From contig JBBCGO010000001.1 of assembly GCA_037200925.1 (NCBI GenBank), forward strand, positions 73,552-137,551: 64,000 nucleotides of DNA, given 5' to 3'. The notes beneath the pieces are model-generated. The model did no database searches. It saw only the letters and a program-made list of their open reading frames with translations, and was not told the origin of the DNA. Below, piece after piece: positions 1 through 35,534 of the stretch (position 1 is the stretch's first letter; every line of letters starts with the position of its first letter). The translations under genes were made by a program, and so were the position numbers. The stretch comes from Candidatus Doudnabacteria bacterium (GTDB lineage: Bacteria > Patescibacteriota > Doudnabacteria > UBA920 > O2-02-FULL-48-8).

Positions 1-1121
1 GATTCCGGGTGAATGAAGATGAGTATAAGGTCATGGGACTTGCAGCTTACGGCCAGCCGGTTTTGGTGAACGAGATCCGGAATTTGATCTTTGTCCAATC
101 TGACGGGAGCTTTAAGCTTGATATGGAATATTTTGGGTTTCATAAAGGTTCTAGGATGTGGAGCAAGAAGTTTGAAAGGCTTTTCGGCCCGCCGCGCCTG
201 CCGGACGAAACGGTCAGCGATTTTCACAAGAATTTGTCGGCAAGCGTACAACGGGTGGTTGAAGACGTGTATTTCCTCATCCTCAACCATTTGTATTCGC
301 TAACGCCACAGCCAAATGTCGCCATTGCCGGCGGAGTAGCCTTAAATGCCCTGGCCAACGGCAAGATCTTTTCTCAAACCAAGTTTCAGCAAGTTCATAT
401 TTTTGGCCCAGCCGGCGACAGCGGCGCGGCTTTGGGGGCCGCGTTTTTGGTCCAAAGTCGGCTGGAACAAGGCACGGTTAACAAATTTGCCGGGAGTCTG
501 CTTCTGGGGTCCGCGTATGAAAACGATCAGATCGAAAAAATCTTGCTGAAGAAAAATCTGGCTTATAAACAATTCACTTCGGAAGATCTGCTTTTGGAAA
601 ACCTGGCCGGTTTGCTCCAGGACGGAAGGGTGATCGGCTGGTTCCAGGGCCGGATGGAACTGGGCCCCCGTTCGCTTGGCTCCCGATCCATCCTGGCCAA
701 ACCGAACCCGAAGTCGGTCAAGGAGAAGATGAATCAAATTAAGCGGCGGGAGCAATTTCGCCCGTTCGCGGGCTCGATCCTCAAAGAACAGGCTGCAGAA
801 TTCTTTGAACTGCCTCACTATCAGGAGGATTTTCCATATATGAATTTTTGCTTTCAAGTCAGAGACGATAAGCGGGAAGTTCTGGCGGGAATAGTGCATG
901 CCGACAATTCTTGCCGCATCCAGACCGTCAGCGCGGAAAACGGCGTGTATTACAGATTGCTGAAGAAATTTTACGAGATCAGCGGAATTCCCTGCCTGCT
1001 CAACACCAGCTTTAATTTACAGGGCGAGCCGATCGTGGAAACACCCGAACAGGCGGTGGATGATTTCCTAAGATCGCCCATGGATAATTTGGCGATCGGG
1101 GATTTTCTGATCTCGAAATAA
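1..1121 (+). CDS. Carbamoyltransferase (NodU/CmcH/HypF-like family), C-terminal part; 5' end truncated by the window edge
   Basis: ORF 9..1121 is open back to nt 1 in the same frame. 'YGFHKGSRMWSKKFERLFG' and 'LGPRSLGSRSIL...KRREQFRPFA' match the carbamoyltransferase C-terminal domain. Confidence 0.75.
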   Translation, partial: FRVNEDEYKVMGLAAYGQPVLVNEIRNLIFVQSDGSFKLDMEYFGFHKGSRMWSKKFERLFGPPRLPDETVSDFHKNLSASVQRVVEDVYFLILNHLYSLTPQPNVAIAGGVALNALANGKIFSQTKFQQVHIFGPAGDSGAALGAAFLVQSRLEQGTVNKFAGSLLLGSAYENDQIEKILLKKNLAYKQFTSEDLLLENLAGLLQDGRVIGWFQGRMELGPRSLGSRSILAKPNPKSVKEKMNQIKRREQFRPFAGSILKEQAAEFFELPHYQEDFPYMNFCFQVRDDKREVLAGIVHADNSCRIQTVSAENGVYYRLLKKFYEISGIPCLLNTSFNLQGEPIVETPEQAVDDFLRSPMDNLAIGDFLISK

Positions 1122-1145: not shown

Positions 1146-2105
1146 TTATTTTTTGCAATCTATCAGATTCTGTGTCAGATAATTATATAAATCTTGAGCG
1201 ATTATTTTGCTTCCGGCAGCGTTAGGATGGGGGTCTCCCGGACGAACGATATTATTGTCATCTGTTAGGTTGCCGATCTTATCATCGAAAAATGTATTCT
1301 GTGAAGCACCGGTAAGCCCTTTGATTTTGTTGACATTTTCCGAAGACAGCAGCCCCGGGGAAGTAAAGAAAAGAAGTTTATTATTGAAATATTTCCTGAT
1401 CGACGTCAAAGCATTAATTTCATAATTTTCAATTTCTCCGATATTTTTCTGATTATACTCCTCTCTTTGCGCACGGAAGGCGAGTTGTTCTGGGTTAGGC
1501 GAATAATTTGCCAAATTGTCGTAGTAATCCAGGACATCATAGAACATGTCAGCGTACACGGACAAACTTCTGTCCAGTAAAAACCATGCCACCAGGTCCG
1601 GGTTGTACTTTTGCCCCCGCAGTATATATCTTTCAAGAACGTATCGGGCGTCGTATCCTCCGACCCCGAGATTTATCACTTCGAATTTTTTAATATTTTT
1701 GCATTGCAGATTGCTGTTCAGCATGTCTTCCAGGCGTTCAGAAAAATTATCATTCGTGTCAAGATATAATCCGAATGTCATGGAGTCACCCAGAGTTATA
1801 ATTCTGTATGTCGCCGGGGGTTTTTCTGTGGTATAATCATAACGCTCGTTGAGGGAATCGGAATTAATTGTGTTGGTGGATTCATAATCCAGCCAATCAG
1901 GTTTGTTCTTCAGGCTGACATTCGGCTTTGGCTCATAAAAATGTTTGAGATCGTTGGAAATTGTGAACTGAAAATCCGCTTTATTTAGCGGGTGAACAGT
2001 CGTTTCATGTAAGATTTTTTCGCGTTTAATGTAGTTGAAAGCCAAAAAGACGATAATTAATATTTCAAAAATCACTAAACCTGTAAAGACAGATTTTTGT
2101 TTCAT
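1146..2105 (-). CDS. SGNH/GDSL-family hydrolase, N-terminal membrane anchor (paralog 1)
   Basis: 'RIITLGDSMTFGLY' GDS(L) motif, followed by an N-terminal TM helix. The ORF track extends to 2324, but the ATG at 2105..2103 ('MKQKSVF..') gives a non-overlapping gene. Paralog of 3713..4738. Confidence 0.7.
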   Translation of the reverse strand: MKQKSVFTGLVIFEILIIVFLAFNYIKREKILHETTVHPLNKADFQFTISNDLKHFYEPKPNVSLKNKPDWLDYESTNTINSDSLNERYDYTTEKPPATYRIITLGDSMTFGLYLDTNDNFSERLEDMLNSNLQCKNIKKFEVINLGVGGYDARYVLERYILRGQKYNPDLVAWFLLDRSLSVYADMFYDVLDYYDNLANYSPNPEQLAFRAQREEYNQKNIGEIENYEINALTSIRKYFNNKLLFFTSPGLLSSENVNKIKGLTGASQNTFFDDKIGNLTDDNNIVRPGDPHPNAAGSKIIAQDLYNYLTQNLIDCKK

Positions 2106-2190
2106 ATAAATATAGAATAGGTATAATCTATTTTCATTATAACACAAGCAAAAATATAATTTCGCCGGTATCGCGTTTATAAGACGAAAC

Positions 2191-3708
2191 ATGATCTCCA
2201 AACCTAGTAATAAATTTTTTATAGCCTTGACATTTTTTTTGTCAGGGATATTTTTAATTTTGTTTGTCTTAAACAGCCAGTTCACAAAATACTTGAGCGT
2301 AAAGCATATTAACGTCACGCTCACAAAAGACGGTTTTCAGCCGGGCAAGATCGAGATCAAGCAGGGCGATACCGTGACGTTTGTTTCAGATCTGGACAAG
2401 CCGTTTTGGCCGGCTTCAGACCTTCATCCAACCCATCTTTTGTATCCCGAATTTGACCCCAAACAGCCCATCGAGCCGGGCAAGACCTGGACATTTAAAT
2501 TTGATAAAGCCGGAATATGGACTTACCACAATCATCTCGATCCTGATATATTAGGGACCATCATTGTTCACAGCGCAGGTAACAGTAAAACCGCTAAAAT
2601 AGACCCGTCTTCCTGCGACGGGCTTTCCGATGATGTCGAGAAATTGAAATGCTGGAGCACTTCGCTGAACAATGTATTGGAATATCAGGGGATCGAAGCG
2701 GCCTTCGGCACGCTCGATAGCTGGTTAAAATCAGAGCCCGATTTTGAACCTTATTGCCATACTTTGGTGCATGAGGTCGGCGCTAAGGCTTACGATCTTT
2801 TTTCGGAACATAAGAGCTTTGGACTCACAGACCAGACATCGCTCTGCGGCTACGGATTTTACCATGGATTTACGGAAACCCTGGCTGCTGAGGGCGGCGG
2901 CATTGCTCAGGCCCGGCAGTTTTGTTCTTTCGTTTATGATGAATTGGGAAGTAAATTACCCGGAATTCTCGACCAATGTTACCACGGTTTTGGCCACGGG
3001 TCTGTTGACATCCATAACGAGGGTATTTGGGGGGATGAGATCGCGATGATACAGCCCGCCTTAAAAATGTGCCGCGCCGTGGCAACTGATTCCGAGAAGC
3101 TGTTCCGTTGCGGCACGGGGATGTTTGATTCGATCTCTATAGGTTATTTTACCCATGATTATAATTTAAAAATGAATTCCACAGATCCTTTTTGGCTGTG
3201 CCGGCAGCAGAAAGAGGAAGAATTTAAGCAGTCATGCTACGTGAGTTTGGATCCCGCTCTTTTACTGATGGAAAATATGGATTTTTCTAAAGCGTCCAAA
3301 TTTATTGAAAATATAAAAGAGGATCAACATGCGACTTTGGCCATGGGGAGCCTGGCTTTGCCGGTTTATTGGATCAAGGACAGGTCAGGCCGGGAAGCCG
3401 CCTCAAAAATGGATAATTTTTACCAAACCCAAGGGGTTGCTTCCTGCAGAACCTTGCAGAAACGCTTGATTGAGCCGTGCATAAAAAGCATTGCATATGC
3501 TTTGACAATGGATGAATCGCGCACCAAACAGTACCAGGAAGGACTTAAGTTCTGCCGGAGGACTGATCTGACTTCAGCTGAAAGCGGCGACTGCTTTAAT
3601 ACCGTGATCAGCACCCTTTCAGAGATTTACCCGAAAGATGAATTGGGTGTTATCTGCAATCAAGAATTGAAATCCGAAGATAAAATATATTGTCAGGGGA
3701 AAATTTAG
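2191..3708 (+). CDS. Secreted protein: N-terminal TM/signal, cupredoxin-like beta-sandwich domain, ~340-aa His/Cys-rich domain (paralog 1)
   Basis: 'WPASDLHPTH...YHNHL' cupredoxin-like segment, but no Cys ligand, so not a classical type-1 Cu site. Then 'CHTLVHEVG', 'CGYGFYHGF', 'CYHGFGHGS' and ~16 Cys. Paralogs at 4754..6226, 7278..8468 and 8476..8913. Confidence 0.6.
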   Translation: MISKPSNKFFIALTFFLSGIFLILFVLNSQFTKYLSVKHINVTLTKDGFQPGKIEIKQGDTVTFVSDLDKPFWPASDLHPTHLLYPEFDPKQPIEPGKTWTFKFDKAGIWTYHNHLDPDILGTIIVHSAGNSKTAKIDPSSCDGLSDDVEKLKCWSTSLNNVLEYQGIEAAFGTLDSWLKSEPDFEPYCHTLVHEVGAKAYDLFSEHKSFGLTDQTSLCGYGFYHGFTETLAAEGGGIAQARQFCSFVYDELGSKLPGILDQCYHGFGHGSVDIHNEGIWGDEIAMIQPALKMCRAVATDSEKLFRCGTGMFDSISIGYFTHDYNLKMNSTDPFWLCRQQKEEEFKQSCYVSLDPALLLMENMDFSKASKFIENIKEDQHATLAMGSLALPVYWIKDRSGREAASKMDNFYQTQGVASCRTLQKRLIEPCIKSIAYALTMDESRTKQYQEGLKFCRRTDLTSAESGDCFNTVISTLSEIYPKDELGVICNQELKSEDKIYCQGKI

Positions 3709-3712
3709 CGGA

Positions 3713-4738
3713 TTATTTGCAGGTGATCAATTTATTGGCCAGCAAATAATTCAGCAGATCTTGGGCTATGGCCTTGTGTCCTTCCGGGTTCGGGTGCTGG
3801 TCGGGAAAGACCTTGCCTGCTTTCACCAGATCCAGCGGGCTTTCGTAGAGATAGGTCCCATCACGCGATTTGCTGTAATTTTCCAACAACAACGCGGGAT
3901 TGGTTGTAGTAGATGGGAGCAGGTATTTCGGAGCATAGATCAGCAGATTGTTTTTATATAAGCTGTTAAATTCATTGAAAGCCTGCATGTTGTAGTCGAC
4001 AATTTCCTTCACTGATAATTGTTTGAGGCTGTCTTTGAAAGCCTGATCCCAGACATTAAAAACTTGCGGTTCGATCAGACCACCGCCCAGTTTATTCAGA
4101 TAGTCGTTGACTTTCGGGAGCAGAATTTCGTTAATATAGTCAATATCGTCATACTTTAAGAACCAGATGACCAGATCTGGATCGTATTTTTGTCCCCGAA
4201 GTTTGTACCGCTCTTCCGAATATTTAACATCATATCCCTGAACAGCCAAGTTGATCACTTCAAATTTTTTGTAAGTCGTACAGCCCATGCCGTTTAATTC
4301 ATCTTCCAGGACCTTAGGATAACTCTGTTCATTATTGACGAATAACCCGTACGTGAAAGAATCACCCAGGGTGATAATCCGGAATGTGCCCGGAGGTTTG
4401 TCGGGCGTGTAATCAGTAGTGCCGCGGAGCGTATCGTGGTTTATGTGATAGGTCGGCTTAATTTTCAACCAGTCTGGTACGCCGTTATTTGCCTCGCTAT
4501 CGGCCTTCGGTTCGTAGAAATATTTCAGACTCGATTGGTCGGGAAAAGTTACGCTGCTGCCCGCGATCGTGCTGAAAGAAGGAGTTGACGATAATATTTT
4601 CTTCCTGTGATAATCCGTGACAAGATAAACCACAGCTTCAAGTTCAAGAAGGATTATCAAGATTATAGCAAGGTTTCTGAATTTTCTTTTTGTATCGTTC
4701 ATGCGGCAGGAGGGTTGACTGATGACTTTACTTTTCAT
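3713..4738 (-). CDS. SGNH/GDSL-family hydrolase, membrane anchored (paralog 2)
   Basis: 'RIITLGDSFTYGLF' plus an N-terminal TM. Possible alternative start at 4702 (MNDTKRK). Divergently oriented to 4754..6226, as in the 1146/2191 pair. Confidence 0.7.
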   Translation of the reverse strand: MKSKVISQPSCRMNDTKRKFRNLAIILIILLELEAVVYLVTDYHRKKILSSTPSFSTIAGSSVTFPDQSSLKYFYEPKADSEANNGVPDWLKIKPTYHINHDTLRGTTDYTPDKPPGTFRIITLGDSFTYGLFVNNEQSYPKVLEDELNGMGCTTYKKFEVINLAVQGYDVKYSEERYKLRGQKYDPDLVIWFLKYDDIDYINEILLPKVNDYLNKLGGGLIEPQVFNVWDQAFKDSLKQLSVKEIVDYNMQAFNEFNSLYKNNLLIYAPKYLLPSTTTNPALLLENYSKSRDGTYLYESPLDLVKAGKVFPDQHPNPEGHKAIAQDLLNYLLANKLITCK

Positions 4739-4753
4739 ATTATAGCATAGGAT

Positions 4754-6226
4754 TTGACGCTTCTTCCCATGAAACTAAAACGCTATTATTTTTATTTAGT
4801 CGCAGCCTTGGCTCTTCTGATAGTTGGGTTGATCTTTGTTTATGCCGGTTCTGCCAAAGGCTTGAAGTTAGCTTCAATATTTGAACAGGGCAACCGTTCC
4901 TCGCACACCATCGTGCTTTCCAAGGGCGGCTTCAGTCCCGGCAACCTTACCATAAAAAAAGGGGATTGGGTGACTTTCACCACTACTGCCGGTCAGCAAT
5001 TTTGGCCGGCCTCAGACCCTCACCCTACACACAGCATCTATCCGGATTTTGATCCGAAACGGCCTGTCGATCCGGGTAAATCATGGAGTTTTCAGTTTGA
5101 AAAAGAAGGAACTTTCCCGTATCACGATCACTTTATTCCAAGCCTGGGAGGAACCATTGTCGTCGGCCACGCGAGTGAGATCGGAGAGAATTGCGCTGAA
5201 GATACTCAAAATCAATATTTGTGTTGGTCGAAAATGATCGATGAATCTTTGCGCAATAACGGGCTTAATTCAGCTTTCTCGCTGGTAGAAAACTTATATC
5301 AGACGCAGCCGGCATTTGCCGGCGATTGCCACCTGTTCCTTCACAAGCTGGGACAGGCGGCCTATGAAGAATTTGCAGATAAACAGGACATTGCCTTGAC
5401 CAGCGCGTCCGCCTACTGCGGTTACGGGTTTTATCACGGTTTTATGGAAAGTCTGCTTATGCAGTCGAACAATTATTCTAAGGCTTTGGAGTTTTGCCAA
5501 AAAGTTTCAGCAGAAATGTCGCAATCCTTGTCTGATGCGTGTTATCATGGAGTAGGGCATGGCGCCATGGCCGTGGGCACTATTGACCAAGCGACCTGGG
5601 GCAAGCCCGATTCTTTGGTAAGCAAGGCTTTGGCGATCTGCAATAAAGTGGCAGACTCTTCGGTAAATGTCGCGCGCTGCGCTTCCGGCTCGTTCATGGA
5701 AATTTCAAGTTATTTGTCGGGCAGCCAGTATGGTTTGTCCGCAGACGCAAAAAATCCGCTGAAGATATGCCAAGCTCAAACCGCAGAAGACATAAAAACG
5801 ACCTGCTATGCCCAGATGTATCCTGTTCTGCAGGCAGTGAGCCGCGGGAGCGTGCCCGCTGCGATCAAATATATAGAAGCGATCCCGGAAGATAATTACG
5901 CGGAAGAATCGGTAGAAACCCTTCTCGGGTCCATGGCCGGGATAAACAGCGATCAGTCAAAAAACGTGCAGGCTTGCTCTGCGGCGCAAAAGCGCCTGCA
6001 AGCCAAGTGTATCAGCGGAATTGCCTTAAGCTTTATGCTGAACGGCACACCTAACGAACAGTATAAGCAGGCGGCCGCCTTCTGCAGCACCGGCGGTTTG
6101 ACGGGCATTGAGAGAGATTCGTGTTATGATCTGATCGTAAATGAATCCAAGAATACTTATTCTGGTTCTCAGCTCCAAAATGCCTGCCAATCCCTGCCCA
6201 GTTATTATCAAAAAAAATGTTTGTAA
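4754..6226 (+). CDS. Secreted cupredoxin-like + His/Cys-rich domain protein (paralog 2)
   Basis: 'WPASDPHPTH...YHDHF', then 'CHLFLHKLG', 'CGYGFYHGF', 'CYHGVGHGA'. N-terminal TM helix. Confidence 0.6.
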   Translation: MTLLPMKLKRYYFYLVAALALLIVGLIFVYAGSAKGLKLASIFEQGNRSSHTIVLSKGGFSPGNLTIKKGDWVTFTTTAGQQFWPASDPHPTHSIYPDFDPKRPVDPGKSWSFQFEKEGTFPYHDHFIPSLGGTIVVGHASEIGENCAEDTQNQYLCWSKMIDESLRNNGLNSAFSLVENLYQTQPAFAGDCHLFLHKLGQAAYEEFADKQDIALTSASAYCGYGFYHGFMESLLMQSNNYSKALEFCQKVSAEMSQSLSDACYHGVGHGAMAVGTIDQATWGKPDSLVSKALAICNKVADSSVNVARCASGSFMEISSYLSGSQYGLSADAKNPLKICQAQTAEDIKTTCYAQMYPVLQAVSRGSVPAAIKYIEAIPEDNYAEESVETLLGSMAGINSDQSKNVQACSAAQKRLQAKCISGIALSFMLNGTPNEQYKQAAAFCSTGGLTGIERDSCYDLIVNESKNTYSGSQLQNACQSLPSYYQKKCL

Positions 6227-7281
6227 AAAATAACCGCAAATTTTTTATTATCGCCGTCGCGCTGATCTTATTTTTCCTGGGCGAATTGTTATTTTTGTCA
6301 GGCAAATTCCGGTCCGTCAAACCCGAGGCCAAGCCGGTTGCGGTAAACAGCCCGCCTGCAGATGCCGAAAAAACGGATCAAAGTTTGCAAATTTCCGCAC
6401 TGGAGCAGAAAGTGAAAGACGATCCCAATGATGCGAATTCGTCGAACAACCTGGCCAGTCTATATTTTCAAACCGGAAAATTTGACCAGGCCAAAGATCT
6501 ATATTCTAATGTTCTCAAAATCAATCCGAAAGACGTCGGAGCGATGACCGGTTTGGCGAATGTCCTGCGTTACCGCGGAGAATATGCCGAATCAGAAAAA
6601 TTGTATCTGGAAGCGATAAAAATCGATCCGGGCAATGCCTGGTCATACATTGATTTCGGGAAACTCTATCGTGACTGGAATAAACCGGCCCAAGCCGAAG
6701 CGGTTTTAATGCAAGCCGCGAAACTCAACCCCAAAGATGATAGGATATATTCTTACGGCCTGGGGTTTTTGTACAGAGATGAAGGCCGGCTTCCCGAAGC
6801 GGAAAAAATGTTCAACAAAGCCCTTCAGCTGAACCCGAATGATTATAATTACATGTCCATGGGCGATATTTACCGCGATGAGGGCAAATTTGCGGAATCA
6901 GAAACCATGTTCAAAAAAGCCCTTGAGTTAAATCCCTTGAACGAAGCTTATATGGGTATGGGGTATCTATACCTTCAGGAAGGTAAATTGGATAAAGCTG
7001 AAGAATCTTTTCAAACGTACTTGAAGCTGATCAAGCCGAAAAGCGAGGTCTATGAAGGCTTGGGCTACATCTATATCTCACAGGGCAAGCTTGCCGACGC
7101 GGAGAATGCGTTCAAAAACTCCATTGCAGTCAACCCGCACTTGTTCGGATATTTGGGCTTAGCCAGGGTCTATAATGTTGAAGGCAAGAAAGACGAAGCC
7201 ATACAGGCATTGAAAAAATCCATTGAATTGAATCCGGATGACAAAGCGGGGCCGGCCTTACTTAAACAATTGGAAGGATGA
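6217..7281 (+). CDS. TPR-repeat protein with N-terminal TM helix
   Basis: About eight degenerate 34-aa TPR units ('LASLYFQTGKFDQAKDLYSNVLKINPKD', 'YMGMGYLYLQEGKLDKAEESF'). Start overlaps the upstream stop, and its stop overlaps the next start (ATGA at 7278). Confidence 0.75.
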   Translation: MFVKNNRKFFIIAVALILFFLGELLFLSGKFRSVKPEAKPVAVNSPPADAEKTDQSLQISALEQKVKDDPNDANSSNNLASLYFQTGKFDQAKDLYSNVLKINPKDVGAMTGLANVLRYRGEYAESEKLYLEAIKIDPGNAWSYIDFGKLYRDWNKPAQAEAVLMQAAKLNPKDDRIYSYGLGFLYRDEGRLPEAEKMFNKALQLNPNDYNYMSMGDIYRDEGKFAESETMFKKALELNPLNEAYMGMGYLYLQEGKLDKAEESFQTYLKLIKPKSEVYEGLGYIYISQGKLADAENAFKNSIAVNPHLFGYLGLARVYNVEGKKDEAIQALKKSIELNPDDKAGPALLKQLEG

Positions 7282-8468
7282 GAACTTTAGCCAACAAAAA
7301 TTTTTTTCTTGTTCTCGCTGCCGCGATTTTGCTTGCCGGTTTGATTTTGGTTTTAGCTCATGCCAAAACCAGATCTCTTGCCGCCGGCAAGCAACAAACA
7401 TCTGCTGGGACCGACTGCTCCGCTTCAAACAACCAAGAGCTATGCTGGCAGCAGCAGATGAAACAGACATTGCAATCGCAAGGCCTGCCCGCGGCATTTG
7501 ATATACTGGCAAATCTTTACGACACTGCGCCGGCGTTTGCCTCGCAGTGCCATGCCTTTACCCACGAGCTGGGCCAGGAGGCATATGAAATGTTCGCATC
7601 GCACCAGGACTTCGAGCTTAATTCCAAAACCCAGTATTGCGGTTACGGGTTCTATCACGGTTTTATGGAAACGCTGCTGCAGAGCACAGGCGATGTCAGT
7701 CAGGCGCAGAATTTTTGCGCCTATGTCGGAAAGAAGCTTGCCGGCCAAACGTCCGACGGCGAGGGCGCCTGTTATCACGGCATCGGCCATGGCGCCGTCG
7801 ACGGCACGGATATAAAAGCCTGGGGAAACCCGCAGGCAATGATCGATCCCAGCTTAAAGCTTTGCAAATTTGCTTCCGGCGACAACCAGCAATTTTTATA
7901 CCGCTGCGTGACGGGTGTTTACAATGCTTTGGAAATACTTTCTTCTGACCCCCAGTACAAGCTGACAATGATCCAGAAAAATCCTTTCTGGCTGTGTCCG
8001 AGCCAGCCGGAATTTTATAAAGAACCGTGTTACACGAATATGCTGCCGTCCCTGCTTAGGTTTACAAATAATGACTTGGTGAAATCCGAGAAAATGATAG
8101 AAAAAATTCCTGAACAGACAGCCATAAAAACCACTGTCTCATACAGCCTGTTCCATGAATTTATCCGGCTGAATTTGGAGCGGCCGAATTATAATATAGA
8201 AAATGGCGTGCAGATCTGCCACGGTCTGGCAGACCCTTACCGTCTGTCATGTATCGAAGGCTTGGCCGGCGGACACATGAAATACGGCGATCCCCAACAG
8301 GCGTACGTCAAAGGCCTGGCGTTTTGTAAAATGCCGATCTTGAAAAGCGACGAAGAGGATTCATGCTATAATACAATCCTGACACGCCTGCCGATCTGGT
8401 ATTCTCCGGCAAAATCCGCTGAGATCTGCAGTTCCGTGGATGTAAAATTCCAAACTTACTGCCGATAA
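7278..8468 (+). CDS. Secreted His/Cys-rich domain protein (paralog 3; no fused cupredoxin domain)
   Basis: 'CHAFTHELG', 'CGYGFYHGF', 'CYHGIGHGA'. Same Cys spacing as the C-terminal halves of 2191 and 4754. Confidence 0.6.
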   Translation: MRTLANKNFFLVLAAAILLAGLILVLAHAKTRSLAAGKQQTSAGTDCSASNNQELCWQQQMKQTLQSQGLPAAFDILANLYDTAPAFASQCHAFTHELGQEAYEMFASHQDFELNSKTQYCGYGFYHGFMETLLQSTGDVSQAQNFCAYVGKKLAGQTSDGEGACYHGIGHGAVDGTDIKAWGNPQAMIDPSLKLCKFASGDNQQFLYRCVTGVYNALEILSSDPQYKLTMIQKNPFWLCPSQPEFYKEPCYTNMLPSLLRFTNNDLVKSEKMIEKIPEQTAIKTTVSYSLFHEFIRLNLERPNYNIENGVQICHGLADPYRLSCIEGLAGGHMKYGDPQQAYVKGLAFCKMPILKSDEEDSCYNTILTRLPIWYSPAKSAEICSSVDVKFQTYCR

Positions 8469-8475
8469 ACTTTTT

Positions 8476-8913
8476 ATGAATAAAAAAATAATAATTATTC
8501 TGCTGTGCGTCATTGTGCTTGTTCTGGGAGTCTACGCTTATAAATTAGCTTTCGTAAAGCCGTCTGACGCGGGGACAAGCCAGGCTGACTCAAATTCCGA
8601 ACCGGCTAAGTTTTCGACCCAGGATAAAATATTGCCGACCGATGTCGTCGTGAAAGTGACGGACAACGGTTTTGTGCCGGACTCGGTTACTGTTAAAAAA
8701 GGGACTCCGGTCGTGTGGCTGAACCAGACCAGCAGTTTTGTCTGGCCGGCGTCCGACCCACACCCCCTGCATACGGACTATCCCGGGTTCGATCCGCAGG
8801 AGCCGTTCAAGAATGGCGAAACTTGGGCTTTTACTTTTGACCGCGTGGGAAATTGGGGATACCATAACCACCTGCAGCCCAGCATGAAGGGAACTGTGCA
8901 CGTAACTGAATGA
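8476..8913 (+). CDS. Stand-alone cupredoxin-like domain protein with N-terminal TM
   Basis: 'WPASDPHPLHTDYPGFDPQEP...GNWGYHNHLQPSMKGTVHV' matches the N-terminal domains of 2191 and 4754. Lies immediately downstream of the His/Cys-domain gene, so it looks like a domain split in permuted order. Confidence 0.6.
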   Translation: MNKKIIIILLCVIVLVLGVYAYKLAFVKPSDAGTSQADSNSEPAKFSTQDKILPTDVVVKVTDNGFVPDSVTVKKGTPVVWLNQTSSFVWPASDPHPLHTDYPGFDPQEPFKNGETWAFTFDRVGNWGYHNHLQPSMKGTVHVTE

Positions 8914-8931
8914 TTGCGGTTGATTTTCCTT

Positions 8932-10077
8932 ATGACTTCTAAGCCTCGGTTGAAAATCGGGATTGTCTGCTACCCGTCAGTCGGAGGGAGCGGAATAGTT
9001 GCTACCGACCTTGGCAATCAATTGGCCCTTTTGGGGCACGAAATCCATTTCATCAGCTATGAACGGCCTTTTCGTCTTGGCTCCAATTCCGCAAATGTTT
9101 TTTTTAATCAAGTAAAGATAAATGAATATGAACTGTTTCGCTATCCGGATTACACCCTACCTTTGGCAGTGAAGATCGGAGACATAAGCCAAAAATACAG
9201 CCTTGACATCATCCACGCTCATTATGCAATTCCTCACGCGACTGCCGCTTTGCTGGCAAAAAATATAGTCAGACATTGCAGCCAGCAGAAGCCCAAAGTG
9301 GTAACTACTCTCCACGGCACTGATATTACCCTTTTGGCCCGCGATCCGAACTTGCGTTCGATCATTCAGTATTCGATCGAAGAGTCGGATGGGGTCACTG
9401 CCGTTTCCAACAGCTTGCGCGAAGAAAGCATCAGTCTGCTGGGGATCAAAAAAGCCGTCGAAGTCATTTATAATTTTTATCAGCCCAAGATCCCGGCCAT
9501 ACCGGCAGCGCAAATAAGGAAGGATTTGGGGATCGGAACGGACGAATTTATGGTTATTCACCTTTCCAATCTTCGTCCCGTCAAACGCATTCCGGACCTC
9601 CTGCGAATAGTCGCCGCGTCGAAGCATGTGCGCAAACTGAAGCTGGTGATCTTATCCGGCGGCAATTTTGAGCAATTCCTGCCGCTGGTTGACGAGTTAA
9701 AATTGAAAAACAACATCATTGTCCGCGAAAACATTTTAGATATTGAAAATTATATCAATGCAGCCGATCTGGGCATTTATCCGTCCGAAACGGAAAGCTT
9801 CGGCATGGGTATTTTAGAAACCCTGAGCTTCGGTAAGCCTGTTCTGGCCAGCAATTCAGGAGGCATTCCCGAAGTCATGCAGCACGGCAGAACCGGATAT
9901 CTCTATCCGGTGGGAGATGTCCAATCGTTCACACAAGGCCTTGATGAACTGATCGAAAATCCTCAAGAAAGGCAGAAGATGGGGGAGCGGGGCAAGGTTC
10001 GGGCCCAAAGCTTATTTAATACCGAGAAAATAGTTAAAGAATATTTTGATTTTTATCAAAAAACCCTGAATTCCTAG
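8932..10077 (+). CDS. GT4 glycosyltransferase, BshA-like (N-acetylglucosaminyl-malate synthase family)
   Basis: 'KIGIVCYPSVGGSGIVATDLGNQLALLGHEIHFIS...HAHYAIPHA...VTTLHGTDIT...VTAVS' closely follows the BshA N-terminal consensus. The ORF is open from 8914 (TTG); the ATG at 8932 is preferred. Confidence 0.65.
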   Translation: MTSKPRLKIGIVCYPSVGGSGIVATDLGNQLALLGHEIHFISYERPFRLGSNSANVFFNQVKINEYELFRYPDYTLPLAVKIGDISQKYSLDIIHAHYAIPHATAALLAKNIVRHCSQQKPKVVTTLHGTDITLLARDPNLRSIIQYSIEESDGVTAVSNSLREESISLLGIKKAVEVIYNFYQPKIPAIPAAQIRKDLGIGTDEFMVIHLSNLRPVKRIPDLLRIVAASKHVRKLKLVILSGGNFEQFLPLVDELKLKNNIIVRENILDIENYINAADLGIYPSETESFGMGILETLSFGKPVLASNSGGIPEVMQHGRTGYLYPVGDVQSFTQGLDELIENPQERQKMGERGKVRAQSLFNTEKIVKEYFDFYQKTLNS

Positions 10078-10202
10078 GCATTTTGCTATCATTTGACAAA
10101 TCCGGGCGAAAGGTGTAAATTATTGTGTTATAGTAGAGATATAGGATTCTTCTTTTTCGGTTATTCAGTTATGTATAATTTTTGGCCTCCAAGGAGGATG
10201 CC

Positions 10203-10940
10203 ATGCGACGGTTGATCATCTCGTTCGTGTTTGTGCTTGCGGCACACGCTCACGCGTTCGCCGCGGATCCGCCCGGACCGGTTCAGCAGGCCTACAGCGA
10301 GCGGCAGCTGACCGCAATCGAAGCGGCCATCGGCGATTCTGCTGCCGTGATCTGGCAAGCTGCTAATCAGCAATCGGCCGAGGTCAAGACCAAGCTTGTC
10401 TTGGGACTTGAAACGAACAGGAAGAAGAACGGGTTCGTTCTCCTGGACGGGAACAAGCCGCTGATCGGTCTCTTGCAGCAGCAGTATGACAAACTGAAGC
10501 CAGGGAACCCGCGTCCCGTTGTGATCCATTTGTTCCGTAGCAATTCGGAGCAATTCAACACAATCGGCGACGATGTCTACCTCGATGCCGCCACTGTCAG
10601 AGGACTTTCAGGGATGGCGGGCGGACAACTCGTCCTGCTCGGAATTCTGGCTCATGAAGTCAGCCACGAACCTGCCGACTTCGCGCGAATCCAGCTGTTC
10701 GGATCGCAGAATTTCACGCCGGATCTGAAAAAGATCCTCATACAGCGCCTTGAAAATCGCACAGATGAACGTGCAGTCAAGATGCTGGAAGATGCAGGGC
10801 TTGACCCCGCCGTGATGATCCGCGTTGTTCAGATGCTCATCGAGAGCAATCCGAATGAAGCCACGCGGCTCGCGGCTCGGAAGGGCCGGATCGAAGAAGT
10901 GATCAAAGCCCGCACTGTGGCTACCGCCGGCTCGCGCTAA
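10203..10940 (+). CDS. Secreted HExxH (zincin-like) metallopeptidase-like protein; GC-rich cassette
   Basis: Signal peptide 'MRRLIISFVFVLAAHAHAFA', then 'LAHEVSHE' HExxH. About 58% GC with G/C-ending codons. AAGGAGG sits 5 nt before the ATG; the ORF track starts at 10182. Confidence 0.55.
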   Translation: MRRLIISFVFVLAAHAHAFAADPPGPVQQAYSERQLTAIEAAIGDSAAVIWQAANQQSAEVKTKLVLGLETNRKKNGFVLLDGNKPLIGLLQQQYDKLKPGNPRPVVIHLFRSNSEQFNTIGDDVYLDAATVRGLSGMAGGQLVLLGILAHEVSHEPADFARIQLFGSQNFTPDLKKILIQRLENRTDERAVKMLEDAGLDPAVMIRVVQMLIESNPNEATRLAARKGRIEEVIKARTVATAGSR

Positions 10941-11562: not shown

Positions 11563-13059
11563 ATGAAACGTAACTTATATTATTTATTGGCTTTCTTGTT
11601 CCTGGTTTTTATTGTTTTATCGCCGTCCAAAGAAGCGAAGGCGAACTCCACAACGTGTTACACGGCGGAAGGGACCGGAGGATCCGAGAATTTTTATTGT
11701 ACCCCGGCAAACGGATATACATGTGATTGCGGCGCTAACAGTGCCAGTTGTACCGATAACGGATCATATACTTGGCACGATGCCTATGGGAATTCCGGAA
11801 CTTGCTGGTCGGGATCAACTTGTAGCTGCACCACTACTTCCTATTCTTGTGGGGGCGGATCTACCTGCGATGGTCCTGTAAATGGAACCGGAAACGGCAC
11901 TCCCGGACAGACCGTTTGCGGTACGAACGGATGGACGTACACCTGCACTGCTCCGGGAAGTTGGATCGGGGGGCCGGGTTTTGGAAGTACATGTCCTGCT
12001 TGCTATTCTCAATCATCCTACTACTCTCAATCCAGTTATTACTCCCAATCATCCTACTACTCTCAATCCTCCTACTATTCCCAATCTTCTTATTACTCCC
12101 AAGCAGCCTACTACGCCCAATCAGCATACTACTCTCAGGCAACCTATTATAGTCAAGCAACTTATTACTCCCAAGCCGCCTACTACGCCCAATCAGCATA
12201 CTACTCTCAAGCAACCTATTATAGTCAGGCAACCTACTACTCCCAGGCAGCATATGTAGTAGCTCCCACAGCCCCGACCCTGACCAAAGTGGATAATATC
12301 AATACCGATGCTTCGGTGCCCTGTTCTAAGCTGAAAGTAACCTGGACTGATAACTCCGGCAATGAAACCGGCTTCATAGTCCTGCGATCAACCACATCAG
12401 GCTCAGGGTATGCCAATATCTCAGGCAACCTGCCTGCCCAGAGCGGCACAGGCACCTTTGGCACTTACCTGGATACCCCTCCTTCCACCGGAGTGACCTA
12501 TTTCTATGTGGTCCAGGCCTTCAATGCCGGGGGCAACAGCCAGTCAAACGAGAAGAGCATCATGAACGTTGTCTGTTCTGCCAACTTTGCCAATACAACG
12601 AAGTTTGTCAGTAAGGTCAACGGCAACCCCTATAGTCCCAGCACTTCAGTCAATAACGGGGATACCCTGACCTACCAGATCACCCTGGTCAATTCCGGCC
12701 CTTCTGCAGCCACGGTCAACTACATCTGCGACACTGTCTCTTCCAACCTGACCAATCTTAGGAACCTGACGGTTACAGGCCCGGGCTCTGTTAATGGGGG
12801 ACTGACAGCCAACAGCCCTACCTGCTCCGGTAATTATCTGTTTAACATCTCAGGCAACAAGGATGTGACCAATAACTGGATCATTACCTATGATGCCAAT
12901 GTCAGCACCGCATCCGCCGATATCCAGGAAGTGGTGACCAATACCTTTACCATCCATTACACTGATTCTTCAGCCAAAAGCTTCTCAGGCTCAGCCCCGA
13001 ACATCATTGTCAATTCCTCCACAGGCAAGACCCCGATCATCAGGGAAGTCGGGCCGTAG
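11563..13059 (+). CDS. Secreted Cys-rich protein with (S-Y-Y-S-Q)n pentapeptide tandem repeat, Fn3-like and DUF11-like domains (repeat protein A)
   Basis: Signal/TM, then a Cys/Gly/Thr-rich module. About 17 copies of 'SYYSQ' variants follow, then 'KVTWTDNSGNETGF...YFYVVQAFNAGG' (Fn3-like) and 'GDTLTYQITLVNSG' (DUF11-like). Confidence 0.6.
   Translation: MKRNLYYLLAFLFLVFIVLSPSKEAKANSTTCYTAEGTGGSENFYCTPANGYTCDCGANSASCTDNGSYTWHDAYGNSGTCWSGSTCSCTTTSYSCGGGSTCDGPVNGTGNGTPGQTVCGTNGWTYTCTAPGSWIGGPGFGSTCPACYSQSSYYSQSSYYSQSSYYSQSSYYSQSSYYSQAAYYAQSAYYSQATYYSQATYYSQAAYYAQSAYYSQATYYSQATYYSQAAYVVAPTAPTLTKVDNINTDASVPCSKLKVTWTDNSGNETGFIVLRSTTSGSGYANISGNLPAQSGTGTFGTYLDTPPSTGVTYFYVVQAFNAGGNSQSNEKSIMNVVCSANFANTTKFVSKVNGNPYSPSTSVNNGDTLTYQITLVNSGPSAATVNYICDTVSSNLTNLRNLTVTGPGSVNGGLTANSPTCSGNYLFNISGNKDVTNNWIITYDANVSTASADIQEVVTNTFTIHYTDSSAKSFSGSAPNIIVNSSTGKTPIIREVGP
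11998..12255 (+). repeat. Imperfect 15-bp tandem repeat (~17 units) encoding the SYYSQ pentapeptide array in repeat protein A
   Basis: 'tactactctcaatcc / agttattactcccaatcatcc...' has period 15. Equivalent arrays lie at 13969..14040 and 14167..14395 in protein B and 17646..17873 in protein C. Confidence 0.85.
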
Positions 13060-13698: not shown

Positions 13699-15174
13699 TT
13701 GAAACAAATACGCAAACAATTAGTGCTGTATATTGTGCTAGGCCTTGCAACTGCCATGGTATTTTTTGCAGTGCCTCATTCTTCAGCTGATACGATTTGG
13801 TGTTCTACTTTCCAATTTTGCAATGGAGGCGCTTCCTGTGCACCAAATCCATCAATGGCTCCAACCGATTGCCCTTCTACTGGCCATTGTTCAGATAATG
13901 GTTTTTCAATATGCGGCGATTTTCTTTATTGCGATAATGGTAATTATGCCATTTGCGATGCAACATACTCCCAATCCTCCTACTACTCCCAATCCAGTTA
14001 TTACTCCCAGGCAGCCTATTATTCCCAACCATCCTATTATTCTGAACCGCAATATTATCGCTGGCAGGGAGGCGGGGGATGCATATGTATGCCGGCCAAT
14101 CCAGGTGACTGCGTCATAACCAACACTGCAAATTGCACGGTAAACTCTAACTGCGCTGGTCTTCCTGCCTGCTACTCTCAATCCTCCTACTATTCCCAAT
14201 CAGCTTACTACGCCCAATCAGCATATTACTCCCAATCAGCATACTATTCTCAAGCGTCATATGGCGGCGGTTATTCCCAAGCAGCTTACTACGCCCAGTC
14301 TGCATACTATTCTCAGGCAGCCTATGCGGGTTACTCTGAAGCATCCTACTATTCCCAAGCAGCCTACTATGCCCAGGCATCGTATGTCTCTGCTCCAACC
14401 GCTCCTTCAGGCGTGGCTGTGGACAATGGCACTTGCGGCCAATTGACCGTGACCTGGACTGATAATTCCAACAATGAGACCGGTTTTACAATATGGAGAT
14501 CAACCACATCAGGCTCAGGGTATGGCCAGGTCGGCAGCGTAGGCCCTAATATTACGTCATTCCCAGACACCCCTCCTACCCCAGATATGACCTATTATTA
14601 TGTGGTCCAGTCGGTCAATGCCGGAGGAAGCACCCAGTCAGTATTAGAAGCAAGCGCTTACGACAACCCGTGTGTTGCCAATTTATCCGGGACCGCCAAG
14701 GTCTTAACCCAGATCAACGGCGCAGCCTATTCTTCAAGCACTTCCATCAACGCCGGGGACGTGCTGACATACCAGATCACGATCATCAATTCCGGCAATG
14801 CCCCTGCTGATATCACTTTCATCTGCGACACCGTCTCTTCCAACCTGACCAATCTTCGGAACCTGACGGTTACAGGAACCGGCTCTTCGGGTTCAGGTTC
14901 TGCCATAGTATCCAACGGCGGCTGCGGAGCAGGCAGCTACAAGTTCAACGTTACAGGAGCCAAACAGCCCTCTCCTCCTGACCCAGGCAACTGGATAATT
15001 ACCTATGATGCCACAGTCACCCCGGCCAGTGCTGATATCCAGGAAGTGGTGACCAACAGCTTTGTCATCCATTACAACAACAACGGAGCTAAAACCTTTG
15101 CAGGCTCCTCCCCGAGCATCCTCATCAATGCCTCAGCAGGCCAGGCCCCGAACTTCCATGAAGTGACGCCGTAG
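13699..15174 (+). CDS. Secreted Cys-rich SYYSQ-repeat / Fn3-like / DUF11-like protein (repeat protein B)
   Basis: Same architecture as protein A. Its 3' ~1 kb is ~99% identical to 17646..18656. Confidence 0.6.
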   Translation: MKQIRKQLVLYIVLGLATAMVFFAVPHSSADTIWCSTFQFCNGGASCAPNPSMAPTDCPSTGHCSDNGFSICGDFLYCDNGNYAICDATYSQSSYYSQSSYYSQAAYYSQPSYYSEPQYYRWQGGGGCICMPANPGDCVITNTANCTVNSNCAGLPACYSQSSYYSQSAYYAQSAYYSQSAYYSQASYGGGYSQAAYYAQSAYYSQAAYAGYSEASYYSQAAYYAQASYVSAPTAPSGVAVDNGTCGQLTVTWTDNSNNETGFTIWRSTTSGSGYGQVGSVGPNITSFPDTPPTPDMTYYYVVQSVNAGGSTQSVLEASAYDNPCVANLSGTAKVLTQINGAAYSSSTSINAGDVLTYQITIINSGNAPADITFICDTVSSNLTNLRNLTVTGTGSSGSGSAIVSNGGCGAGSYKFNVTGAKQPSPPDPGNWIITYDATVTPASADIQEVVTNSFVIHYNNNGAKTFAGSSPSILINASAGQAPNFHEVTP

Positions 15175-15914: not shown

Positions 15915-16628
15915 ATGAAACTAATTCCCAAGCGCTATTTGATAATAGTAAGCATCTTTGTCATCGGAATATTTTTAACCGTTGCAGCTTACAGCACGCT
16001 TCGCTTTCATGAGAAAAATAAAACACCAGTTTCTGCGGACAGCGCAAAGTCTGAACCTATCGTCCGATCACCTCAGGAAATGCTTAAGGAGCTGAGCAGG
16101 AACTCCCCTCAATTAGGAAGTCCAAACGCCCCGATTCAGGTCGTGGAATTTGCGGATTTTCAATGCCCATACTGCGAACAGTTTTATGCCACTGCTTTTA
16201 ATCAGATAAATGATAAGTATGTTAAAACAGGAAAGGTAAAATTTATTTTTGCCGACGCCCCGATCATCGGAGAAGAGTCGACGATCGCGGCCCGCGGAGG
16301 CAAGTGTGCGGATGAGCAGGGAAAATTTTGGGACTATTACAATTATTTGTTTCAGCATCAGAAACCCGAGAATAACGGCAACCTGAGAACATCTAATTTG
16401 AAAAAGATAGCTTTGCAGATCGGTCTCGATGGAGAGCAGTTTGACGCTTGCCTGGATTCGCAAAAATACGCTTCCGAGGTATCTGATGAATTGAAACTTT
16501 TCGGCGTGCTTGGCATTACCGGGACGCCTGGATTTGTCATTAATGATCAGGTAGTATCAGGCTATAAAGCGGGGGTAATTCAGGGGATAATTGATAAAGA
16601 ATTGAAGTCTATCGATCCGAATCCTTGA
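15915..16628 (+). CDS. DsbA/thioredoxin-family thiol:disulfide oxidoreductase, membrane anchored
   Basis: 'VVEFADFQCPYCEQF' CPYC active site, plus an N-terminal TM. Confidence 0.8.
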   Translation: MKLIPKRYLIIVSIFVIGIFLTVAAYSTLRFHEKNKTPVSADSAKSEPIVRSPQEMLKELSRNSPQLGSPNAPIQVVEFADFQCPYCEQFYATAFNQINDKYVKTGKVKFIFADAPIIGEESTIAARGGKCADEQGKFWDYYNYLFQHQKPENNGNLRTSNLKKIALQIGLDGEQFDACLDSQKYASEVSDELKLFGVLGITGTPGFVINDQVVSGYKAGVIQGIIDKELKSIDPNP

Positions 16629-16694: not shown

Positions 16695-17252
16695 ATGAAT
16701 AAAGCAGTCAAATGGGTTCTTATTGTAATCTTGATTTTGGGTGTAATAATCAGTGCTGGGTTCCTTGCAGTGAAATACTGGCCTAAGAATACCAATTCTC
16801 AGGCGAACATTCTTCAAAGAGAACAAGCAGCGGATGCCTATGTTCCAAGCAAAGACCCGGCAGCTGATCTGGCGGCAGACAAACAGAAACTTCTTAAGCT
16901 CGCTACGTTAAATTTTCTGGCGATTGATACGTCTGAGGTTTCCGATGTGCCTTCGGATCTGAATTTTTTGAAGATAAAGGATGCCACAAATTTAGTATCA
17001 AATAAAGTCAGCTACACTGACGGTTCAAATGGATTTTTGATAACAATGGATCTGGATTATCCTCTGTTTTCCGCCTATCAGACCGAAGCCAGGAGCATAC
17101 ACTATGAACAAGGCTGGAGCCAGATTTATGGAGCTATCACTAATACATTTGCTTTGCTGGAAGCAAAAAATAATACCAATCAGATCCAGATCAGGTTTAC
17201 AAGATTATCAACCGAACTTACAACCGTCGAGATTAAAGTACTGACGAAATGA
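16695..17252 (+). CDS. Small N-terminally anchored membrane protein (module partner 3)
   Basis: TM 'WVLIVILILGVIISAGFLAV', beta-rich domain ending 'TTVEIKVLTK'. Its stop overlaps the next start (ATGA). Confidence 0.5.
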   Translation: MNKAVKWVLIVILILGVIISAGFLAVKYWPKNTNSQANILQREQAADAYVPSKDPAADLAADKQKLLKLATLNFLAIDTSEVSDVPSDLNFLKIKDATNLVSNKVSYTDGSNGFLITMDLDYPLFSAYQTEARSIHYEQGWSQIYGAITNTFALLEAKNNTNQIQIRFTRLSTELTTVEIKVLTK

Positions 17253-34974: not shown

Positions 34975-35100
34975 TGTATAATTAATCCAACAACTGAATA
35001 TATATCAAGAGTGGCGGTGAAAGCTCTGGCTTTATGACCCGCCCGGCAACCCTCAACAAGAGAAGGTGCCAATTCCAGCCTCTAACGAGGAAAGATAATA

Positions 35101-35130
35101 AAAAAACTTTCCTTCCGGAAGGTTTTTTTG
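35101..35130. terminator. Bidirectional rho-independent terminator between convergent genes
   Basis: 'aaaaaaactttCCTTCCGGAAGGttttttt': a perfect 12-bp palindrome flanked by A and T tracts. Confidence 0.8.
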
Positions 35131-35147
35131 TAAAAAAAGAAGCCTCG

Positions 35148-35534
35148 CTAGCGCGGGCTTGGTTTGAGGGGCACAGGGTCAACCAGTTGTTTTACGCAGT
35201 TGATCGCTGCTCCGTACTCGGCAAAAATTTCCTTAGGCAGCGCCTTGACCTTTTTTTTCAGGTCTTCCTGAACCGCTTGAGAGTTGGCGACGAAGACCAA
35301 AGGCTTGTGCATGTTCGCGAACACCGATTTGGTCTGGATCATGAACTCGCACGTATCCCGTTCAAACCGTTCCAGATGGGTCAGGTCGAACACAACAATG
35401 TTGAGCTTTTGGATAAAGCCAGGACGAAGCCCGAAGGTCAGCAGACCGATCTCTTGTTCGCTCATGGATTCGCCGATAATGATCTTGAGCATGCGAGCCT
35501 TAGGCCAGTCGCCGTTGTTCACTGAAATCGACAT
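35148..35534 (-). CDS. STAS-domain protein (anti-sigma-factor-antagonist-like)
   Basis: 'FDLTHLERFERDTCEFMIQTKSVFANMHKPLVFVANSQAVQEDLKK' fits a STAS core. AAGGAG ribosome-binding site before the ATG at 35534; the ORF track extends to 35558. Confidence 0.45.
   Translation of the reverse strand: MSISVNNGDWPKARMLKIIIGESMSEQEIGLLTFGLRPGFIQKLNIVVFDLTHLERFERDTCEFMIQTKSVFANMHKPLVFVANSQAVQEDLKKKVKALPKEIFAEYGAAINCVKQLVDPVPLKPSPR

Follow-up and report, generated by a model that had tools for sequence, protein, structure and literature searches.

Arrays of membrane-anchored proteins in Patescibacteria that combine a cupredoxin without type-1 ligands and a histidine/cysteine-rich helical domain: a possible histidine-ligated metal-binding system

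What is the function of a membrane-anchored protein in which a cupredoxin-like domain without a Cys ligand is joined to a domain rich in conserved histidines and cysteines, and why do such genes stand side by side, two of them head-to-head with a hydrolase gene, in one piece of a bacterial chromosome? These questions are raised by a stretch of 64,000 nucleotides (nt) from Candidatus Doudnabacteria bacterium (GenBank assembly GCA_037200925.1, contig JBBCGO010000001.1, positions 73,552 to 137,551), which as a whole is called here the window. An earlier interpretation, made from the letters alone and referred to below as the sequence-only reading, had described two divergent gene pairs, in each of which an SGNH/GDSL hydrolase (SGNH-A, SGNH-B) is paired with a protein (CupHC-A, CupHC-B) made of a cupredoxin-like and a histidine/cysteine-rich (HC) domain, and a third HC protein without a cupredoxin domain (C), followed by a gene encoding only the cupredoxin domain (D). 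All eight open reading frames (ORFs), the head-to-head pairs and their positions were found again in the ORF listing of the window. We propose, with a probability of roughly 45 per cent, that the proteins form a histidine-ligated, disulfide-stapled extracytoplasmic machinery that binds a metal, probably copper, or performs redox chemistry.

The cupredoxin-like part was characterized with a profile derived from an alignment of 28 free-standing and fused domains. The profile matched amicyanin (E 5.7e-9) as well as plastocyanins and NirK, and, more weakly, laccases over the HPxH region. With the Pfam model PF13473, CupHC-A scored 27.7 bits (cutoff 27), and CupHC-B and D stayed under the cutoff with 25.9 and 19.9 bits. 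A model of the fused two-domain protein (predicted local distance difference test, pLDDT, 91.8; predicted template modelling score, pTM, 0.85) gave TM-scores of 0.70-0.78 to plastocyanins and amicyanin in Foldseek. Profile and modelled structure place the domain among the genuine cupredoxins, in the plastocyanin/amicyanin clade, as a predicted Greek-key beta-sandwich rather than an unrelated Ig-like fold. The sequence-only reading had considered a CopC/YcnI-like relationship as well; this assignment was rejected, the domain following a transmembrane anchor, having no N-terminal His and matching neither the CopC nor the DUF1775 model of Pfam.

Eleven residues are invariant in the 28-domain alignment (W90, P91, S93, H96, P97, H99, Y102, D106, G125, H130 and H132 in the numbering of D). 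The alignment bore out that there is no Cys ligand: Cys92 of amicyanin aligns with Asp/Asn131, and its His95 and Met98 fall on variable positions. Across 135 domains the former Cys position is occupied by Asp in 81-91%, otherwise mostly by Asn and rarely by Glu, and in the model the ligand loop is reduced to a two-residue turn, a tight hairpin. A type-1 blue copper site, with its ligand set His/Cys/His/Met(Gln), was rejected on these grounds. The four His of the HPxH and HxH motifs are conserved in 97-100% of the same 135 domains. The position once held by the Cys lies between H130 and H132, which in a beta-strand would both point to one side, away from the old type-1 pocket. Two of 51 members match Cu-oxidase_3 (PF07732), the type-1-less N-terminal domain of oxidases, with E 6.6e-5, which is consistent with an HxH geometry like that of multicopper oxidases. 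A multicopper oxidase proper was rejected: such enzymes have at least two cupredoxin domains, with four HxH-type motifs (8 His) and a type-1 motif HCHxxxHxxxxM between them, and the present proteins have a single cupredoxin domain with HPxH and HxH only and no Cys in it.

Ordinary blue-copper electron carriers, shuttling for example to NirK, would be another interpretation of such proteins: plastocyanin is the best fold match, two fused members have been named 'plastocyanin' by JGI, and single-cupredoxin 'pcy' proteins of Patescibacteria have been read as electron carriers to NirK (PMC12931201). The missing type-1 ligands effectively exclude a plain plastocyanin, and we regard this explanation as highly improbable. 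Those 'pcy' proteins that belong to the present family, if there are any, would have no blue site, and metabolic reconstructions that use the label 'plastocyanin' need checking, since members carrying it do not have the blue-site ligands.

All three HC proteins of the window contain exactly 16 Cys. Three motifs of the HC domain, CHxFxH, CGYGFYHG and CYHGxGHG, are unchanged in these proteins and in 51 homologues. No Pfam or NCBIfam model matched any of 51 members even at E<=1, neither the single sequence nor a 51-sequence profile matched an entry of the PDB, and a search of the literature for a description of the family found none. By these searches the domain belongs to no named family, and no known relative was found for it by sequence comparison. 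A profile scan of 1.84 billion representative sequences returned 3,763 clusters (50% identity) at E<=1e-3 and 726 at E<=1e-30, and a word-indexed search gave 512 matches of approximately 385 to 500 amino acids (aa). The named homologues are all from Patescibacteria, also known as the Candidate Phyla Radiation (CPR): Nomura-, Yanofsky-, Sung-, Kaiser-, Davies- and Doudnabacteria, Minisyncoccia and Microgenomates. Some records of metagenome-assembled genomes with HC loci are labelled in the genome collection 'Gammaproteobacteria' or 'Verrucomicrobiia', and several of the Gammaproteobacteria-labelled loci have orthogroups in common with Patescibacteria-labelled ones. On present evidence the family is restricted to Patescibacteria.

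The AlphaFold2 model of C (mean pLDDT 92.6, pTM 0.84) consists of an N-terminal helix and about 20 further helices, so that the HC domain is, as confidently modelled, an all-alpha repeat fold of about 350 aa. In Foldseek searches the helical part of CupHC-A matched only a designed armadillo protein, and the HC model otherwise gave generic solenoid matches, including AlkD-like HEAT repeats. Comparison of the N-terminal and C-terminal halves with hhalign yielded a weak signal (P 0.003, probability 10%), and the word 'repeat' therefore describes the predicted structure only.

Conservation in the HC domain was determined over a scan of one genome per species, which returned 71 other loci (designated L numbers) and, with that of the window, makes 72. 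Among the 389 HC domains of these loci a conservation of 60% or more is reached by the Cys, by five His with the Gly beside them, and otherwise only by a single Phe, a single Val and a single Pro. The five His, on whose retention in homologues the sequence-only reading had made its metal site depend, are kept in 91-100% of 104 fused domains and in 79-96% of 285 HC-only domains; the pattern 'HH.HHH' is present in about 78% of all HC domains, and the shortfall is mostly due to a sub-class of 43 shorter proteins without the first three His. In the model of C the His are arranged as HxxxH, H and HxxxH on the helices 91-107, 116-137 and 161-173. They occupy equivalent positions of consecutive hairpins and would therefore line up side by side; from the helix periodicity we infer that the five cluster in space. 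In seven of the 104 fused proteins H96, H167 and H171 are replaced jointly and H92 and H127 are retained, a pattern which suggests a 3-His sub-site plus a second pair.

The presence or absence of Cys is correlated in seven sequential pairs (47-56, 91-121, 196-210, 240-251, 314-325, 350-363 and 384-395; r 0.70-0.97), and C165 has C147 or, alternatively, C125 as its partner. Such correlated sequential pairs fit disulfides within hairpins rather than Cys acting as metal ligands, and they point to approximately eight sequential disulfides, one in each helical hairpin. A gene for a DsbA-like protein, present in the window and near the arrays in six other loci, would encode a plausible oxidant for the eight Cys pairs.

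The copies within the window are paralogues, as had been claimed, with similarities far above chance in the sequence comparisons. The HC proteins CupHC-A, CupHC-B and C are 33-36% identical pairwise, with E values from 1e-70 to 1e-100 (A and B: 34%, 1.6e-100; A and C: 6.6e-70; B and C: 1.1e-73). D is 46% and 42% identical to the cupredoxin parts of A and B (E 1e-28 and 4e-27), and the two SGNH proteins are 38% identical to each other (E 6e-58). A fourth HC copy of the genome lies just upstream of the window start (motifs CHSLMH, FQHG and CYHGAGHG), so the array continues beyond the window. The duplication is neither local nor recent, however, as closer relatives occur in other genomes. A paralogue shares a median of 32% identity with its nearest copy at its own locus and of 52% with its nearest relative in another genome, and 95% of the paralogues have their best match in another locus. 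These values identify the window as a stretch of an ancient array, and not as the product of a local duplication.

An iterated profile search of the ORFs of the loci found 310 HC-only, 106 cupredoxin-HC and 32 cupredoxin-only genes, forming same-strand arrays of up to 15 copies (e.g. in L047, L057, L038 and L044). The order of orthogroups is common to several genomes: L047 agrees with L057 and L038 approximately with L066, and L003, L005, L006 and L042 are alike. In L047 and L057, 13 HC and cupredoxin-HC paralogues follow one another in identical order, and each of them is only about 30% identical to its neighbours. Judged from these comparisons, the array is an ancient, ordered set of paralogues, to which up to approximately 18 kb per genome is given.

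The age of the arrays bears on the possibility that the HC protein is a non-catalytic surface scaffold, receptor or adhesin. It would then be a disulfide-stabilised armadillo- or HEAT-like platform whose variable surface binds ligands of the host or the environment, the His being structural, as a Zn site or a pH switch. The exclusively generic helical-repeat matches (designed armadillo, AlkD-like HEAT), the variation between paralogues at all positions except Cys, His and Gly, and the large arrays of membrane-tethered proteins are all compatible with this role, as is the episymbiotic lifestyle of Patescibacteria (PMC12931201). The paralogues are, however, old and keep their order between genomes instead of diversifying rapidly, and for a scaffold the Gly-flanked five-His cluster in all paralogue groups, together with the repeated fusion to a His-only cupredoxin, would be unusual. 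Taking these points together, we consider a scaffold unlikely.

The sequence-only reading had further taken C and D as a domain split in reversed order, indicating that the two domains work together. The association of the domains is general. About one third of the HC copies are fused to a cupredoxin or adjoin a free one, and among 31 free cupredoxin genes examined 15 lie directly after an HC-only gene and 11 directly before one; with the 106 fused ORFs, these counts sustain the link by fusion and adjacency. The derivation of D from C could not be upheld. In six loci the members of C's orthogroup carry a fused cupredoxin and in six they do not. A neighbour-joining tree places D within a group of about 20 stand-alone cupredoxins, and D is 52-66% identical to free cupredoxins elsewhere, compared with at most 45% to the cupredoxins of the fused orthologues of C. 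As D nests in a free-standing lineage and is closer to free cupredoxins, it is not the detached half of C, and gene fission was rejected.

The other partnership that had been claimed, that of SGNH hydrolase and cupredoxin-HC protein as a conserved module, failed in the co-occurrence check. Both hydrolases are putative SGNH esterases, a family marked by a block I GDS(L) motif with the nucleophile Ser and by an Asp/His block near the C-terminus. SGNH-A matches Lipase_GDSL_2 below the cutoff (E 5e-6) and has its GDS motif at residue 106; SGNH-B, with the motif at residue 125, is the only one of the two to exceed the cutoff of Lipase_GDSL (PF00657; 26.8 bits, cutoff 23.6). The C-terminal block reads D-x-H-P-N in place of the usual DxxH. 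By iterated profile search, SGNH homologues were found in only two of the 71 other loci. In L037 the order carbamoyltransferase, SGNH (-), CupHC (+) is the same as in the window, and in L018 the SGNH gene is adjacent. The pairing is consequently lineage-specific, the hydrolase as a conserved partner of the family was rejected, and the two SGNH genes are a lineage-specific insertion into the array. One retrieved protein (P0191) has an esterase of the alpha/beta-hydrolase type (Abhydrolase_2, E 9e-9) fused N-terminally to an HC domain, and is the only independent, if faint, hint of cooperation between esterase and HC domain.

If the SGNH proteins were true partners, HC proteins and esterases might act jointly on an acylated polymer or lipid outside the cell, for example in processing glycans of the cell wall or the host. 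The two pairs of the window, the recurrence in L037 and L018, the P0191 fusion and the surrounding envelope and glycan genes (GT4 glycosyltransferases, a sugar transferase, MurG) would agree with such an activity. The absence of SGNH genes from 69 of the 71 other loci argues against it, as do the single esterase fusion among about 270 retrieved proteins and the lack of conserved acid/base residues in the HC domain, and we find it improbable.

Other genes accompany the family more regularly. Sixteen of the 72 loci encode a homologue of the membrane-anchored TPR protein of the window (TM-TPR), with a median distance to family genes of 0, and in five loci the gene adjoins both a cupredoxin-HC and an HC gene, the same pair as in the window; the protein is a companion that recurs with the family. 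Another neighbour, 'c1', is a small membrane-anchored protein, cupredoxin-like but degenerate, in which two Cys are invariant and no copper ligand set is obvious; it is encoded in 22 loci, interleaved with HC genes, and one such gene lies about 1 kb upstream of the window start. Twenty loci, with no copy in the window, encode a protein of about 175 aa ('c2'), whose gene lies a median of 3 bp away from one of the family. It has a signal peptide ending in ...A before HG, an Ig-like body and a C-terminal transmembrane anchor, and apart from one Gly the sole invariant residue is the His predicted to be the first of the mature protein. Frequently a stand-alone cupredoxin gene begins within the 'c2' gene, and the free-standing lineage of D often follows 'c2' in other genomes (8 of 31). 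In its signal peptide, N-terminal His, beta-sandwich and C-terminal anchor 'c2' resembles YcnI of B. subtilis, which binds Cu(II) at the N-terminal His (10.1101/2021.06.11.448128), but it has no sequence match to DUF1775. An N-terminal-His signature has been used to find metalloproteins (PMC12537917).

A GT-C-like membrane protein with a weak PMT_2 match was found in ten loci, and a multi-pass membrane protein of about 320 aa ('c7'), with no relative in Pfam or the PDB, beside family genes in seven. In one protein (P0210) 'c7' is fused to an HC domain, and it may be a membrane partner of HC proteins. Tyr-rich surface proteins are encoded near the arrays in 23 loci, a clustering which may be compositional. 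No informative Pfam or NCBIfam matches were obtained for the recurrent neighbours c1, c2, c5, c7 and c8 and the Tyr-rich proteins, and no ORF of the loci contained two REGLE-type motifs, by which an FTR1-like permease was sought.

By their topology the proteins are extracytoplasmic, each tethered by one N-terminal helix. In the mechanism that we propose, some eight disulfides, one per hairpin, would staple the HC domain. The five Gly-flanked His on three consecutive helices would form a metal site, possibly a 3-His site and a pair, and the four His of the cupredoxin would bind a non-blue (type-2-like) copper or supply half of a site at the interface. A transition metal, most likely copper, would be held by histidines only, and the cupredoxin and the HC His cluster would act jointly, either in copper capture and hand-off at the cell surface or in a redox reaction, with the TM-TPR protein as assembly partner. 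That the two His patches touch each other is suggested by the homology to multicopper oxidases. Assuming that this outline is correct, the existence of a metal site is probable, copper as the metal has somewhat less than an even chance, and an oxidase is unlikely.

Several observations weigh against the proposed metal-binding or redox machinery. HC-only copies outnumber cupredoxin-bearing ones by about 2:1, so the HC domain must be able to work without a cupredoxin in cis. The loss of HC His and that of cupredoxin His are not correlated, and the 389 HC domains contain no conserved polar catalytic residues other than His. A search of 1.06 Mb of family loci for a copper ATPase (P-type, DKTGT motif) found none, and none of the neighbour clusters that were scanned matched a recognised family of copper homeostasis. 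Finally, the His- and Gly-rich helices could accommodate Zn, Fe, Ni or a planar cofactor equally well.

This last point leads to the alternative that the proteins scavenge or buffer a metal other than copper (Zn, Ni or Fe) or a planar cofactor such as haem, the cupredoxin being a degenerate non-copper module. The surface polyhistidine-triad proteins of streptococci are an analogue. Besides the missing copper ATPase, such a function would account for ligand sets of His only, with no Cys or Met, and for the tandem surface paralogues, and the Gly residues around the His would let a bulky ligand approach closely. The His retained by the cupredoxin, however, stand at exactly the positions by which multicopper oxidases and NirK bind copper, and the co-located 'c2' protein with its N-terminal His resembles Cu(II) binders (10.1101/2021.06.11.448128). 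As a whole, this alternative appears quite unlikely.

A bolder form of the copper proposal is that three or four cupredoxin His and the five HC His build a multinuclear, His-only copper centre at the domain interface, constituting a new class of copper oxidase or oxidoreductase. We regard this as a long shot, even when it is counted together with the variant in which the copper centre would form between the cupredoxins of neighbouring paralogues. Were it true, the second half of the oxidase would be a helical repeat instead of a cupredoxin, and there would be 10-15 specialised surface paralogues in bacteria that are otherwise devoid of respiratory chains.

The coordinates of the features are collected in Table 1. 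A single N-terminal hydrophobic segment, and no other, was found in both SGNH proteins, CupHC-A, CupHC-B, TM-TPR, C and D, and none in the GT4 protein. The genes from CupHC-B to the GT4 gene overlap by 10 and 4 nt and are then separated by 7 and 0 nt, and there is no terminator-like site on the + strand in 4754-10077; this tight arrangement agrees with the translationally coupled operon described before. The identification of the last gene as BshA-like also holds, as the protein matches the BshA equivalog model TIGR03999 over its full length with 412.3 bits (cutoff 273.7). BshA is the first enzyme of bacillithiol synthesis, here encoded in a Patescibacteria genome. A conserved partnership between BshA and the family was rejected: homologues occur in only three other loci, on the strand opposite to the locus-defining family gene. 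The rest of the window is ordinary chromosome, with genes for MurG, a Mur ligase, SecA, MetK behind a SAM riboswitch and an H+-pyrophosphatase.

Table 1. Positions of the array genes, their domains and neighbouring features (window coordinates, or coordinates within the L locus named)
Feature	Position	Strand	Remarks
SGNH-A	1146-2105	-	SGNH/GDSL-type esterase, N-terminal membrane anchor; publicly annotated in this 319-aa form; mechanical ORF extends to 2324
CupHC-A	2191-3708	+	505 aa; anchor, type-1-less cupredoxin and HC domain
CupHC-A, anchor	~2215-2271	+	
CupHC-A, cupredoxin	~2305-2571	+	
CupHC-A, HC alpha-repeat	~2614-3705	+	
CupHC-A, cupredoxin His	codons 2425-2535	+	His79, 82, 113, 115
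CupHC-A, HC His	codons 2758-2997	+	His190, 194, 225, 265, 269
Promoter-like site upstream of CupHC-A	2131-2160		
SGNH-B	3713-4738	-	SGNH/GDSL-type esterase, N-terminal membrane anchor
Promoter-like site upstream of CupHC-B	4715-4743		
CupHC-B	4754-6226	+	490 aa; anchor, type-1-less cupredoxin and HC domain; start codon TTG at 4754, public annotation begins 15 nt downstream
CupHC-B, cupredoxin	~4898-5173	+	
CupHC-B, HC	~5189-6223	+	
TM-TPR protein	6217-7281	+	membrane-anchored; TPR_1 E 1e-52
C (HC-only)	7278-8468	+	396 aa; anchor and HC domain
C, five-His cluster	codons 7551-7790	+	H92, H96, H127, H167, H171
D (cupredoxin-only)	8476-8913	+	145 aa; stand-alone, membrane-anchored, type-1-less
D, cupredoxin His	codons 8761-8871	+	
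BshA-type GT4	8914-10077	+	cytoplasmic; final gene of apparent operon; context only
Secreted protein	10182-10940		252 aa, directly after the operon; weak C-terminal M48 peptidase match (E 4e-4)
Tyr-rich secreted proteins	11563-13059, 13699-15174, 17249-18652		long low-complexity SYYSQ repeats, DUF11-like C-terminal parts
DsbA-like thiol-disulfide oxidoreductase	15915-16628	+	membrane anchor; Thioredoxin_4 E 5e-32, DSBA E 3e-17; context
SAM-I riboswitch	34999-35100		upstream of metK; 57 bits (gathering score 44.4)
Mechanical ORF	35034-35525		overlaps the riboswitch; no Pfam match; may not be a gene
metK	35609-36547		
NodU-like carbamoyltransferase	9-1121		preceded by the DUF5989 mini-protein and 62-aa ORF of the next row
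DUF5989 mini-protein and 62-aa ORF	L001:1818-2155		
Fourth HC copy	L001:1-1086		upstream of window start
'c1' gene	L001:1195-1737		upstream of window start
'c2' examples	L012:11200-11745, L015:9143-9661, L033:13139-13627, L036:14154-14642		and 16 other loci
'c7' examples	L044:14290-15264, L037:1181-2275		
Tyr-rich protein, example	L058:3183-4295		GYYYGYAQ repeats

A large part of bacterial diversity belongs to the Patescibacteria, whose genomes measure about 1 Mb and in which hardly any redox or metal biology has been recognised. The HC family comprises thousands of sequence clusters and is yet nameless. If its His clusters bind copper, it would represent a new cuproprotein architecture, and the proposed machinery, if real, would offer a handle on how these bacteria cope with oxygen, metals and hosts.

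Compared with amicyanin, plastocyanin and the Nitrosopumilus cupredoxin 5fc9, the cupredoxins of the window have lost the type-1 site and have four other His invariant instead, and they are membrane-anchored or fused to the HC domain. In multicopper oxidases the trinuclear copper cluster sits at an interface between domains and is bound by the His of HCH/HSH motifs. Their type-1-less domain 1 (Cu-oxidase_3) likewise has no blue site, two His motifs and an HxH flanking the Cys position, and the similarity to it, seen in the PF07732 and laccase matches, is weak but real. The proteins described here differ in having only one cupredoxin, HPxH instead of HxH as the first motif, no type-1 domain in the same protein and an alpha-helical partner.

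Two further systems can be likened to the HC proteins. Sel1-like Helicobacter cysteine-rich proteins are secreted alpha/alpha repeats with a disulfide in each helical hairpin and no His cluster. The hairpin pairing proposed for the HC domain would be the same, but the HC domain has no Sel1 or TPR signal in Pfam and a different repeat length. EfeO/EfeM of the EfeUOB iron uptake system consist of a cupredoxin and a helical, metal-binding M75 domain, and an M75-only form exists as well (PMC9174327). The overall logic is similar, an extracytoplasmic cupredoxin followed by a helical domain that also occurs without it; membership of the HC domain in M75 (imelysin-like, HxxE motif) was considered and rejected. 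Set beside these systems, what is new is the HC domain and the organisation of its genes in arrays, for which no counterpart is known, and the cupredoxin part represents a variant form of an established fold.

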